Assembly: GCA_036867785.1 (NCBI GenBank)
Contig: CP145420.1
Coordinates: forward strand, 992,001-1,056,000
Length of the DNA: 64,000 bases
From: Plasmodiophora brassicae
Taxonomy: Eukaryota
Direction of reading: 5' to 3'
Shown here: in pieces, positions 30,910-41,193 of the stretch
How positions within the stretch are numbered: the stretch's first letter is position 1
How the letters are laid out: each line of letters opens with the position of its first letter
Translations under genes and position numbers: made by a program
Notes under the pieces: generated by a model
Seen by the model: the letters and a program-made list of their open reading frames with translations, nothing else
Told to the model about the DNA's origin: nothing
Databases searched by the model: none

Positions 30910-32124
30910 AGCTCAGACGGCGCCCTGGACGTCCGGCAATCGCTGCAATCGGTCGCGCGCGCCCCTTCCCAGCACCATGCGTCGATGGCGCGGCGGACCG
31001 ACTCAATCGTCGCAACCTCTACGATGGGTGACTCTGGGGAGGGTACTGCGATGTCGTGGTAATTTCGACCGGGGTGGGCGATGTTCGGCGTAACTTCGCA
31101 GGCTTACTGTAGGTATCGATCTGATGGCGGCCTCTGAGCGCGCCAGTCGCCACGCAGAAGCCCTGATCCGAGGTTGTGTCACCGGGTGATCATGGATGAT
31201 TGGCATTGGTCACTTCTATGTACCGGAATCGGAGGTTCGGACGGTCAAATATGAACTACTGGATCTATCCATTAATCGCTATATCGATAGGTTTGATTTC
31301 CCTGGTCGTGTACTGGCTCAGCGGCAGGCAGCACCAGGAACTCTTAAGCACTCTTCAGGCGAATCAGCTGGGCATTCTACATGCGATCCAGCAGTTCAGT
31401 CAGCCGCCGACGTCATCAGATGCGTCGCTGTATCCAGGAATTTCGAACGATCAGGAAATTCTGGATCTATCCGTTTGTCGCTCTATACAGCTGGGCCATA
31501 GAACGATAAATGGATAGATCCAGAATTTCTTGATCGTTCGAAATTCCTGGATACAGCGACGCATCTGATGACGTCGGCGGCTGACTGAACTGCTGGATCG
31601 CATGTAGAATGCCCAGCTGATTCGCCTGAAGAGTGCTTAAGAGTTCCTGGTGCTGCCTGCCGCTGCGCCAGTACACGAGCAGGGAAATCAAAATTATCGA
31701 TATAGCGATTAATGGATAGATCCAGTAGTTCATATTTGACCGTCCGATTCCGGTACATAGAAGTGACCAATGCCAATCCTGCATGGCCACCACTGGAGAC
31801 CGAGGCGCCTGCGTGACAAGCGCGAAACCCAAATGGCCACCACTACCAGCTCAACGCACCTGCGGGCCTCGGTGACACAGCCTCGGATCAGGTCTTCTGC
31901 GAGCTCAGAGGCCGCCATCAGATTGATACCTGCTGTAGACCTGCGAAGTTAAGCCGAACATCGCCCACCCCGGCCGAAATTACCACTACGTCGCGGCAAC
32001 TTCCCCCGAGGCGCCCATCCTACAATCACAGAGGTTGCGACGACTTGAGTCGAGCATGGTGCTGGGAAGGGGCGCGCGCGACCGATTGCAGCGATCGCCG
32101 GACGTCCAGGGCGCCGCCTGAGCT
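30910..32124. repeat. Long inverted repeat IR1 (arms 30910-31486 and 31498-32124, 11-nt loop)
   Basis: The reverse complement of the right arm aligns to the left arm. The inner 290 bp or so are near-perfect and the outer part has indels. Loop is ACAGCTGGGCC. Confidence 0.95.
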
Positions 32125-32393
32125 GGGCAGACAGGCGCGTCTGGGCGTAGGCAGACCAGCTCACTACATAGTACAAATAGGAATTAGTAGCGGACTATTA
32201 ATAGCGGAAACCGACCGCCTATAACGTCCGCGGCATGCGCACGGCACTCCCGTCGTCTGCGTTCTGAAAGGCGTAAACTTGTTGTCCGTTCGAACCTAAC
32301 GAAAGTATGATCGCCTGACCTACACGCTTTGTATCGAGCCGTATCGTGACGCCGCGCATGACGACAGGAACCATCGATCTGAACGTGGCCAAT

Positions 32394-33281
32394 ATGGCGC
32401 TCCAGCGTCGTGTCCGCTGCTTCAAGCCAGCTGCGTTAACTCTTTCCTTGACCTTCCTTCTGATCGGTCTATGCAACGGGATTGAATACGTTTTTGTGGC
32501 CGATGTTGCCACTGGGTACGTGGAGTGCGGCGAAGCCATTGATGAAGATCGTGTTTGCCTGCACGGCGCTCAAGATCTCGTGCGGACGGCCGGCTTCAGG
32601 CCGCATGAACAAGAAGGCTCCTGTTTCTACTGCTATGTAGGCAACGTCGTTCCTGAAGACCTGACCCTGCTCAGGGACTTCATGGCCTTGGTGAATCCGG
32701 TATACTACCCTCGCCGCGTGTAATCGATACTGGACTGACGATCACTGGCGCCCGCGCGCGCAACAGGACATTGACTGGGTGCCAGACGCAAAGAATTTTG
32801 TCAACAATTACAATCTTCGGGAGAGACATTTCGAGTACAATTACCGGCTTCTTGAGTTGGCCCATCGCTACAACGTGAGCCGGCTCCTTTTGTCTATGGG
32901 GTACTTCCTGCCACTTCCAACGACAGATGCACCTGCCATACGCGGTGTCCCACTGTACGTAAGCTTGGAAGCACATTGTTACTACTTCATCTAACTCCAC
33001 ACTGCAGGTCTGACGACGTCTGTTCCATCTGCCTACAACCGTGCACGAGGATTGACCATATCGCAAAGCTATCGTGCAGCCATCTCTACCATATGGACTG
33101 TCTCATCGGCTGGCTTAAAGAAGGACAACGCGCTTGCCCAATCTGCAGAAAAGACATAAAGGTCGAGTGGTTTATCCCAGTGCGATTTCCTAACGGGATT
33201 CCGGACCATGATGTCGAGGAAGTTGTTCGCGTCTGGGCAAGCGCGTTGGCCCCGGGACACGGGACGTCGCTTGACGCGTAA
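32394..33281 (+). CDS. Putative secreted SKP1/BTB-like plus RING-H2 E3 ubiquitin ligase
   Basis: Signal-like MALQRRVRCFKPAALTLSLTFLLIGLCNG. Introns 32700-32766 and 32955-33007 splice in frame. RING-H2 reads CSIC..CSHLYHMDC..W..CPIC. Confidence 0.8.
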
Positions 33282-34025
33282 GCGCCCCAACTCCCAAGCG
33301 ACATTGCAGAATCCCCTGGATCAGCGCGTCGCAATGGAATACATTATGCGCGTCTCTACGTCCCAATATCGTGCCGGAGATGACCTACGAGCAGCAACAA
33401 CAGCCAAACGCCTTTCAGGGGTGCACGTTAGCTGGTCACCTTGAACCACTTCATGGCGTGCACTAATATAATATTACTACATATATACATCAAGGCCTGC
33501 CGCACAGCACGGCCAACCGCCCAGCGTCCGTCGCTATAATGTCTGAGTTTAGATCGGGCCAAAGCCTTCGAGCAGGGGAGGACGTTGCGAGCCACTGGAT
33601 CGCTCCGGGCCCTTGCGGAAATGTTGCACTCGCCACGACGAGATCTCTCGAGATGGCGGTAGGGGAGTTCCACCACGTAATTCACACAAGTGCCTGCGCT
33701 CCGCCGTACCAGCATGATTCGGTCGTCGCGGACATGCCCTGAATATCGTTCGTATTTACACGTTTCCATCGCCCTGCTCTGGTCAAAACCTGAGACGTAC
33801 CAGCATTCCGTACCCGCCTGACAGATCGAATGCAAGGATTGTAGTGTGTTCACAATGAAACGTGGCTGCCGTCGTCCAGGTGGCGTTGGGATTCCATCGC
33901 AGCCGGCCTGCAGCTGAACGGGATGCAGACCAGCTGCAGGGAGGACGCAGGACGATTCCTGTGCAGCAGCCGATTCCACGGCGCCAGTGTACGCTGCTGG
34001 TAAGAGGTTGGTACGATCAGTACGC

Positions 34026-39289: not shown

Positions 39290-40104
39290 ATGGTTGGATC
39301 CAGAGCACATGCCGGCGTGGAATGGGTCCTATTTTGGTTACACAGCACAGTCTCCCTTGCGGCGTCAGCGTACCCGGTACCGCCAATCGTTGTCAGTTTC
39401 ATTTTGGAAAGGATGCAGTTGCCATCGAGCGTCGTCGAGCATCTTCGCGGAAACGCGGGGCGGCGCGCCGCGTCAAGCTTCGATAATGTCGAGATTACGA
39501 TCGAAAATGACACTGGGCGTGCGACGATAGCCGTCCAGCATGCCAATTATATCGAGCTGGTCGCCACTGGAACCCCGACGGCGGGGCGGAACCCGTTACC
39601 TGCGTACGCAGGTAAACCTATACACGCCATCATCAGGTTGTTATATTCACGTTCTGCTATGCAGCACCCGCCGTGTCCTTCACGGCGGGAAACAAGACGC
39701 TGACGGCACACAAGATCAAATTCTATGTTCGGCAGCTTCTAGGCGAGCGGACAGTGGCCGCCCTGATCAAGCGGCCCAAAGGCGCCTGGGTCCTGAAAAA
39801 GGCAGCTGACGTCAACGGTTTGTCATCCCGTCTGCAAACGTCAAGGCGACGGCCTTTTTGAGGTAACTGGTCACGTACAGTGCCGGTAGCCGTGTACCGC
39901 CTGGTTCGACGCCTGCGAGGTTTGTCCGTCAAGTTCGAGCTCAATCCGATATTCTTGGGCAACAGGTCCACCTCGTTTCGTAATATCATGATCATGGACC
40001 TCGATAACCTATCCATCGTCCTGAGAAGCATCGGCGGTGGCAGTCGGTTAATTCCGTGTTATGGAGACAATAGTCGTCCGTCGTGTCGTCTCCTGACATC
40101 TTAA
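39290..40104 (+). CDS. Putative secreted protein of about 238 aa (IR3 left paralog)
   Basis: Signal-like start MVGSRAHAGVEWVLFWLHSTVSLAASA. Introns 39612-39664 and 39818-39862 give an uninterrupted frame. Many differences from the right paralog are synonymous. Confidence 0.7.
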
Positions 40105-40201
40105 CCGACTGCCGAAGCCGTCGGTTGCCGTGGACGTTTATTCAAACTGCGCGGCTGCGCGACCCCCGTCGCGGCCGTGCCATAACATATCCGTGGTGAA
40201 T

Positions 40202-41019
40202 TTATGACCGGTCCAGGGGGATAGTACTGACGTGATCAGCCCAGCTGGGCATTTGAAGGCTGGCTTGCTGCTCGCCGCCGATGCTTGACAGGACAATGGA
40301 TAGGTTATCGCAGTCTATGATCGCGATTTTACGGAACGAGGTGGACTTGCTGCCCAACATAATCGCCTGTAGTTCGTCCTTGAACGACAAACCTCGCAGG
40401 CGTCGAACCATGCGGTACACGACTATCGGCACTGTACGTGACCAGTTACCTCAAAAAGGCCATCGCCTTGACATTTGCAGACGGGATGACAAACCGTTAA
40501 CGTCAGCTGCCTTTTTGAGGACCCATCCCTCCGGCCGCTTGACCAGGGCGGCCACCGTCCGCTCGTCCACGAGCTGGCGAACAAAGACTTTTATCTGGTG
40601 TGCCGTCAGCACCCTGTTTCCCGCCGAGAACGACACGGCGGGTGCTGCATAGCAGAACGTGAATATAACCACCTGATGATGGCGTGTATAGCGTTACCTG
40701 TGTACGCAGGTAACGGGTTCCGCCCCGCCGTCGGAATTCCAGAGGCGACCAGCTCGATATAATTGGCATGCTGGACGGCTATCGTCGCACGCCCAGTGTC
40801 ATTTTCGATCGTAATCTCGACATTATCGAAGCTTGACGCGGCGCGCCGCCCCGCGTTTCCGCGAAGATGCTCGACGACGCTCGATGGCAACTGCATCCTT
40901 TCCAAAATGAAACTGACAACGATTGGCGGTACCGGGTACGCTGACGCCGCAAGGGAGACTGTGCTGTGTAACCAAAATAGGACCCATTCCACGCCGGCAT
41001 GTGCTCTGGATCCGACCAT
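40202..41019 (-). CDS. Putative secreted protein of about 239 aa (IR3 right paralog)
   Basis: Same start and same two introns as the left copy, with an intact frame. It has a one-codon indel and a different C-terminal tail. Confidence 0.7.
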
Positions 41020-41193
41020 CACCACGATCGCGAGCTTGGCTGTCAACACCTTGGCCAACCGAATGAGTCGGCATGGTCCTACATAGGTACATAGGTATTT
41101 GGTTACACATCGCAGTCTCCCTTGCGGCGTCAGCGTATCCGGTACTGCCAGATTCATTTTGGATATGGATTGCAGTCGCCATCAAGCGCTATT

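Follow-up and report, generated by a model that had tools for sequence, protein, structure and literature searches.

Three long inverted repeats, IR1 to IR3, lie within 10 kb of one another in a 64,000-nt stretch of contig CP145420.1 of Plasmodiophora brassicae, the organism that causes clubroot of cabbage-family crops. This stretch is referred to as the window, and all positions are counted within it. The repeats probably arose as separate local inverted duplications with patchy gene conversion between their arms, in a lineage-specific island that is prone to duplication, with IR3 formed by two convergent intact genes. The locus belongs to known classes, the gene-bearing palindromes and the candidate hairpin-RNA (hpRNA) loci.

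The left arm of IR1 (30910-31486) pairs with a right arm at 31498-32124 across a loop of only 11 nt (31487-31497). The right arm carries a 73-nt insert at 31791-31863 and is 8 nt short relative to the left arm. The 250-nt core of IR1 (31237-31486 paired with 31498-31747) is 97% complementary, reaching 99% directly beside the loop. Outside the core the value is 74-85% with insertions and deletions (indels), and the outermost 71 nt are again 97% complementary. IR2 consists of a left arm (34026-34427), a 108-nt spacer (34428-34535) and a right arm (34536-34926), and its arms are 94.5% complementary over 402 nt and 100% across the inner ~115 nt. The IR3 arms (39234-40043 and 40268-41075) are 92.2% complementary over 811 nt, with a spacer of 224 nt by BLAST or 237 nt if measured between the inner blocks. 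The longest exact complementary runs are 135 nt in IR1, 183 nt in IR2 and 270 nt in IR3, which fits the 130-330 bp of near-perfect pairing per repeat described in an initial annotation of this DNA. Self-BLAST of the window was used to compare the three repeats and gave no match linking any two of them. A scan for inverted pairs (14-nt seed, 60-nt minimum) detected 8 in the 64 kb, all inside 30.9-43.0 kb. These results confirm the positions of the repeats, their lack of relationship to each other and the earlier statement that nothing comparable exists in the other 54 kb. Repeats as long as IR1-IR3 cannot be chance products. An Rfam scan and a tRNA scan of the window returned 0 matches each.

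Whole-genome amplification and long-read chimeras are known to yield artificial palindromes (PMC6218980), and such an origin can be discounted almost entirely for IR1-IR3. Divergence between the arms is 3-25%, with indels of 3-73 nt. Short-read DNA contigs of two sequencing runs from two studies, X1 and X4 (the latter a plant metagenome), cover all 30 bins of the region, and both flank-arm junctions are present in these two runs. Among the contigs listed, ends are mirrored inside the arms of IR1 (30968/32066, 58 nt in each) and of IR3 (39263/41046, 29 nt in each), and therefore each arm is joined to its own unique flank. The two IR3 genes are also annotated side by side on public contigs of two different sizes. 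The initial annotation had likewise judged an artefact unlikely because the arms have diverged. Overall, 14 DNA-type runs from 4 studies contain 88-92% of the sampled words, and the window itself may derive from one of them.

IR3 is a pair of intact annotated genes and not a dedicated hairpin. The left gene lies on the plus strand with coding exons at 39290-39607, 39661-39816 and 39880-40104. Its introns are marked by RNA joints at 39607>39661 and 39816>39880 in runs X15 and X19, with short sides of 26-29 nt and GT..AG ends. Both runs are labelled only as possible RNA, and GT..AG joints of 53-67 nt mark their contigs as spliced RNA. Splicing the left arm gives a single open frame, and the 232-residue product is identical letter for letter to the annotated protein P0001. 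The right arm holds the convergent paralogue on the minus strand (41019-40702, 40648-40496 and 40432-40202), in which the mirrored introns likewise end in GT..AG and the frame of 233 codons is intact and close to P0003 (PBRA_008588). In the public annotation the two genes, PBRA_008589 (SPQ99483) and PBRA_008588 (SPQ99482), lie next to each other; the contigs concerned are 104,294 and 1,249,881 nt long. Among the joints listed, copy-specific splice joints were seen for the left gene only. The stop codons of the convergent genes are 97 nt apart, and therefore the 3' ends of the two transcripts may overlap.

The identity between the IR3 arms is a mosaic. It is 100% in the 56 nt upstream of the coding sequence, 98.7% in exon 1, 92.5% in intron 1, 85.6% in exon 2, 96.8% in intron 2 and 82.9% in exon 3. 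The sole exonic indel is a 3-nt indel in exon 2. Comparison of the two genes gave a ratio of nonsynonymous to synonymous divergence (dN/dS) of 0.59 overall, with a dS of 0.25 and a dN of 0.155 in exons 2-3. The intact frames and the in-frame indel point to some protein-level constraint on the IR3 genes. Coding constraint does not account for the mosaic, in which intron 2 is 96.8% identical versus 83-86% for exons 2-3. Because intron 2 is more alike than the exons that flank it and the 5' half is nearly identical throughout, the pattern in this one genome probably reflects gene-conversion tracts. Conversion would then have homogenised the 5' halves of these two tail-to-tail paralogues, and their 3' halves have diverged at the protein level.

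The IR3 spacer contains a short TTAA-bounded element (40040-40113; 74 nt) with perfect 12-nt terminal inverted repeats. The left IR3 copy takes its stop codon and its aberrant final ~20 residues from this element, and the right copy retains the C-terminus of the family. The two bins with the element have a DNA word depth of ~10x, and many loose contig ends at 40053-40189 branch to other contexts. The element is probably multi-copy and resembles a miniature inverted-repeat transposable element (MITE). An additional inverted 53-nt copy of part of the IR3 arm, 92% complementary, is located just beyond the right arm at 41098-41150.

Two further paralogues of the IR3 genes are found on other contigs and are 66-68% identical to the query, and all of these genes belong to a small family confined to P. 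brassicae. Pfam assigned no domain to the family. An AlphaFold model built from the 4-sequence alignment has a mean predicted local distance difference test score (pLDDT) of 39, and an ESM Atlas search with P0001 gave a top score of 0.89, which is under the level of a lead. An exact-pattern scan of a metagenome collection with a 30-mer of IR3 exon 1 returned 0 matches. PBRA_005415, PBRA_008588 and PBRA_008589 are named in no paper's main text, and supplementary tables may list them. Two public models exist for the left gene (38885-39607 in the window), the 232-residue P0001 and P0008, a 339-residue protein that is extended at the N-terminus. A signal peptide in the family was judged by eye only, and it depends on the 232-residue model rather than on P0008.

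IR2 has a different anatomy. The only relative of a 250-residue open reading frame (ORF) through IR2 is P0005, an unnamed prediction of 218 residues on a 1.9-kb contig. Residues 26-102 of P0005 match the minus strand at 34469-34224, from the left arm into the spacer, with 76% identity and an indel of two codons. In the right arm the match is limited to residues 39-95, on the plus strand at 34533-34709. Across IR2 the likeness to a P0005-like exon is 76-85% at the protein level. Because the P0005 homology extends into the spacer on the left and covers less of the right arm, the left arm and the spacer are the original exon fragment and the right arm is its inverted partial copy. The initial annotation had derived the arms from effector-like genes and from a transposon-like ORF. 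What stands of the first idea is a lineage-specific origin for some arms, with IR3 derived from the P. brassicae family and IR2 from one exon of a family that has no name. The second idea was not confirmed, as 15 ORFs or proteins from the repeats, the duplicated segment and their immediate surroundings had no Pfam family at E<=0.01.

The age of IR2 can be judged from a direct segmental duplication that includes it. Copy 1 (32323-35233) contains a RING-finger gene together with IR2, and copy 2 (41320-43335) is 83-90% identical to copy 1. Copy 2 carries a 116-nt near-palindrome at 42912-43027 that consists of the outer 78 and 47 nt of the IR2 arms. The counterpart of 34104-34879 is gone, and 7 nt (TGCAGAT) are shared at the junction. 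Loss of the centre of an older palindrome from copy 2 is a far simpler explanation than insertion of a palindrome at the exact centre of a short one. IR2 would thus predate the direct duplication, because copy 2 carries the same palindrome with its centre deleted. A piece of coding exon would have been joined to its own inverted copy before the 3-kb direct duplication, and copy 2 has lost the centre at the 7-nt microhomology. The two IR2 arms resemble each other more closely than copy 1 resembles copy 2, which fits either arm-to-arm conversion or selection.

Other comparisons of the IR2 segment were recorded. The right remnant in copy 2 (42982-43027) is complementary at 46/46 positions to 34027-34072 in the left arm of copy 1, versus 83-90% around it, which hints at conversion between the two copies. 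At 34874, a DNA contig (X4) and an RNA contig (X15) both match the window rightward and leave it leftward. The sequence into which they continue is unlike either window copy, and this implies at least one further paralogue of the IR2 segment elsewhere in the genome.

IR1 is unannotated and occupies the gap between the end of the RNA contigs of a NAF1-like gene (30823) and the first RNA contig of the RING-finger gene (32157). A search of 5.8 billion clusters, restricted to proteins of 57-184 residues, gave no match for its best ORF (105 codons), and Pfam gave no family for any of four IR1 ORFs tried. The arms differ at six codons, and five of these differences alter the residue. IR1 is thus an intergenic palindrome between the NAF1-like gene and the RING-finger gene, and on the available evidence it is non-coding. 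A 30-mer across the IR1 loop had 0 matches in the exact-pattern scan of the metagenome collection. Two proteins, P0006 and P0007, were the only matches to the IR1 ORF among all 1.84 billion representatives. They were rejected as spurious; they are unrelated proteins with serial tandem repeats, each matched in 5 stretches, and one has 1401 residues.

Two variations were noted in and near IR1. One X4 contig has 8 extra letters at 31742 that make the right arm mirror the left exactly, and X1 is without them. The 8 letters are either a strain difference or the result of a left-arm contig placed on the right arm. In X1, the bin at 30452-30935 has a DNA word depth of ~12x and loose contig ends occur at 30542 and 30589, as would be expected if the 3' part of the NAF1-like transcript included a short multi-copy sequence.

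The symmetry of IR1 raises the question of a foldback or MITE-type transposon, for IR1 or alternatively for IR2. IR1 is palindromic from end to end, and its highly similar outermost 71 nt resemble terminal inverted repeats. The flanks of IR1 differ and have no target-site duplication, self-BLAST finds no second copy in the window, and no transposase-like ORF was found. The arms of IR2 are homologous to a coding exon. A transposon of this type is highly improbable.

Local duplication is the process that the surrounding island displays. The interval 32.3-44.4 kb holds both copies of the direct duplication, the fragment of a gene, a gene copy in decay and the extra 53-nt inverted piece. IR1 lies 200 nt before copy 1, and the distance from IR3 to copy 2, again on the upstream side, is 245 nt. 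As read from the sequence, segments were repeatedly duplicated nearby, in direct and in inverted orientation, and the products then decayed, underwent deletion or were converted. In this mechanism, IR1-IR3 would have formed separately by template switching or fold-back repair.

Several observations weigh against an explanation by duplication and conversion. The copies of the direct duplication, apparently a younger event than IR2, are 83-90% identical, and the near-perfect cores with 135-270 nt of exact complementarity far exceed that value. Gene conversion accounts for the difference, but selection for a perfect RNA duplex would do so too. No gene origin was found for IR1, for which duplication of a gene piece is only a possible origin. 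The clustering is striking, with three unrelated long palindromes in 10 kb versus none in the other 54 kb of the window. Finally, P. brassicae has abundant 21-nt small RNAs and no RNA-dependent RNA polymerase (RdRP), according to PMC13547706, and therefore needs hairpins or antisense pairs as sources of double-stranded RNA (dsRNA).

The initial annotation had interpreted the three repeats together as one dedicated small-RNA-producing locus that could silence transposons, regulate effector families or supply small RNAs to a host. The repeats are clustered, RNA interference (RNAi) exists in P. brassicae (PMC13547706), and the possible 3' overlap of the IR3 transcripts is in its favour. What lies between the repeats counts against it: three spliced genes that encode proteins, and one gene fragment. 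A four-exon RING-H2 gene lies at 32157-33394 on the plus strand, with introns at 32305-32367, 32699-32765 and 32955-33007 that are marked by joints in X15 and X19. Its exons form an open frame of 273 codons with a C-terminal zf-RING_2 domain (E 3.4e-11). A second spliced gene on the plus strand has RNA joints for three introns at ~35.8-36.7 kb, and a spliced aquaporin gene is located at ~36.98-37.9 kb. The fragment (38002-38659) duplicates part of a gene at 43336-44423 with 97-100% identity, and its joint at 38530>38543 is present in all four runs. The repeat region is a gene-dense stretch and not a dedicated non-coding locus. The arms of IR3 are intact genes with conserved introns, some protein-level constraint and spliced RNA support, and none of the 15 ORFs and proteins has a transposon domain. 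A single dedicated locus is very unlikely.

A narrower proposal is that IR1 and/or IR2 are hpRNA genes. A transcript through both arms would form a duplex of 250-400 bp that is cut by PbDRL, a Drosha-like RNase III, into 21-nt small interfering RNAs (siRNAs). We consider this a possibility to be held tentatively. A duplication origin is compatible with hairpin RNA from IR1 or IR2. Predicted folding as one RNA is nearly complete, with -1070 kcal/mol for IR1 and -827 kcal/mol for IR2 (z = -58 for IR2). Because the IR2 arms stem from exonic coding sequence, a target is available in principle, and siRNAs from IR2 could be directed against P0005-like transcripts. A spliced RNA contig on the minus strand (34889-35629; X15 record 13) has introns at 35003-35055 and 35524-35580 with CT..AC joints. 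This contig heads into IR2, overlaps the right arm by 38 nt and ends where words become common to the paralogues. The longest ORFs in its upstream exons are 85 and 77 residues. Its anatomy is as expected for a spliced hairpin precursor, for which it is a candidate only, and the layout matches Drosophila hpRNA genes, in which inverted exon fragments sit in spliced primary transcripts (PMC10317233).

Other data speak against hpRNA genes at IR1 and IR2. The contig that is directed into IR2 was seen in a single run, X15. Among the contigs listed, none spans both arms and the loop, a feature that contigs cannot show reliably. Transitions between the arms have no strand bias toward G:U pairs (13 versus 10 in IR1 and 2 versus 5 in IR2), in a test that is weak because the counts are small. 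RNA contigs from two studies both stop at 30823, 87 nt short of IR1, and the DNA contigs continue, a weak indication that the mRNA from upstream ends before IR1. No weight is given either way to the word depth of the RNA-run contigs, 0.3-4.5 in IR1 and 0-5 in IR2 versus 80-225 in the NAF1-like gene, because contig depth cannot rank parts of the stretch and strong duplexes are known to lose RNA-seq signal (PMC10317233).

For RNAi in P. brassicae, a 2026 paper (PMC13547706) describes two Argonautes (PbAGO1 and PbAGO2) and PbDRL, which cuts long dsRNA, and reports no Dicer and no RdRP. The small RNAs are 21 nt long, phased and begin with a 5'-C, and their loci are mainly intergenic. The same paper leaves open the source of the siRNA precursors and illustrates one palindromic small-RNA region in Fig. 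2G. Long genomic palindromes are obvious candidates for dsRNA precursors in an RNAi system without Dicer or RdRP. The window supplies three kinds of palindrome, one non-coding, one built from an exon fragment where a spliced RNA contig ends, and one an intact convergent gene pair, and the locus is a ready test case. In the most extended form of this idea, the dsRNA would come from genomic palindromes. Young hpRNA genes, created when gene fragments were duplicated in inverted orientation, would be represented by IR2 and perhaps by IR1; PbDRL would cut their RNA into 21-nt siRNAs that act on P0005-like genes, and IR3 would feed antisense siRNAs onto its own family. We regard the combined scheme as speculative and rather unlikely. 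Otherwise, the locus illustrates in an ordinary way how a small lineage-specific gene family is reshaped by inverted duplication, by gene conversion and by loss of palindrome centres.

Comparison with known systems places the repeats in context. The Fig. 2G region is from the same species and is the same kind of structure, indicating that palindromic loci in P. brassicae can be processed to 21-nt RNAs (PMC13547706). De novo hpRNA loci of Drosophila simulans, as described in PMC10317233, likewise have arms that are inverted copies of a coding-exon fragment, and the hairpin can sit in a spliced primary transcript. These loci cluster with intact paralogues (13 inverted repeats in ~27 kb), and the RNA-seq signal of the young hpRNAs is depleted in the duplex (PMC10317233). 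P. brassicae, a rhizarian, differs from Drosophila in having a Drosha-like enzyme in place of Dcr-2, the arms of IR3 are intact genes and not fragments, and the present loci are known from sequence and RNA contigs. Many of the most prolific siRNA loci of the budding yeast Naumovozyma castellii are inverted repeats transcribed to hairpins, with convergent overlapping transcription as a second source (PMC7528652). The lineage and the enzyme are different, and the P. brassicae loci are candidates only. The primate sex-chromosome palindromes, whose likeness is maintained by gene conversion between the arms (PMC8327919), resemble IR3 in having one intact gene per arm and stretches of 100% identity beside diverged ones. 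The IR3 arms are ~0.8 kb long versus tens to hundreds of kb in primates, have no link to a sex chromosome, and owe their suggested conversion to the comparison of arms within one genome. An origin like that proposed for IR2 is also reported from plants. Allen et al. 2004 reportedly described plant MIRNA genes as born by inverted duplication of target genes. This route from an inverted gene fragment to a small-RNA hairpin fits the proposed origin of IR2, and the likeness is one of origin only. To our knowledge, the RNAi pathway of N. castellii operates without an RdRP.

The genes that border the repeats complete the map of the island. A gene with a NAF1/Gar1 domain (29081-30337) lies upstream of IR1. 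The copy-2 RING gene (41320-42450) is degenerate, with stop codons, a frameshift that falls inside the RING finger, and an exon 2 shortened by a deletion of ~90 nt.

Several features outside the island were recorded. A 702-codon frame at 51455-53563 on the plus strand, 10 kb from the repeats, encodes a non-canonical nucleotidyltransferase with a Cid1-family PAP_assoc domain (E 1.5e-6). Cid1-type nucleotidyltransferases take part in small-RNA pathways in some organisms. A tandem array of ~9-10 units of 147-155 nt occupies 53823-55100 and is followed by a CCGT-rich short-period repeat at 55123-55353. Both are bracketed by 99-nt direct repeats (53719-53817 and 55424-55522) that are 98% identical, and the 54-56 kb interval has strong negative GC and AT skew. 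Two adjoining frames on the minus strand at 55767-58768 carry chitinase-like domains of glycosyl hydrolase family 18 and are possibly one gene.

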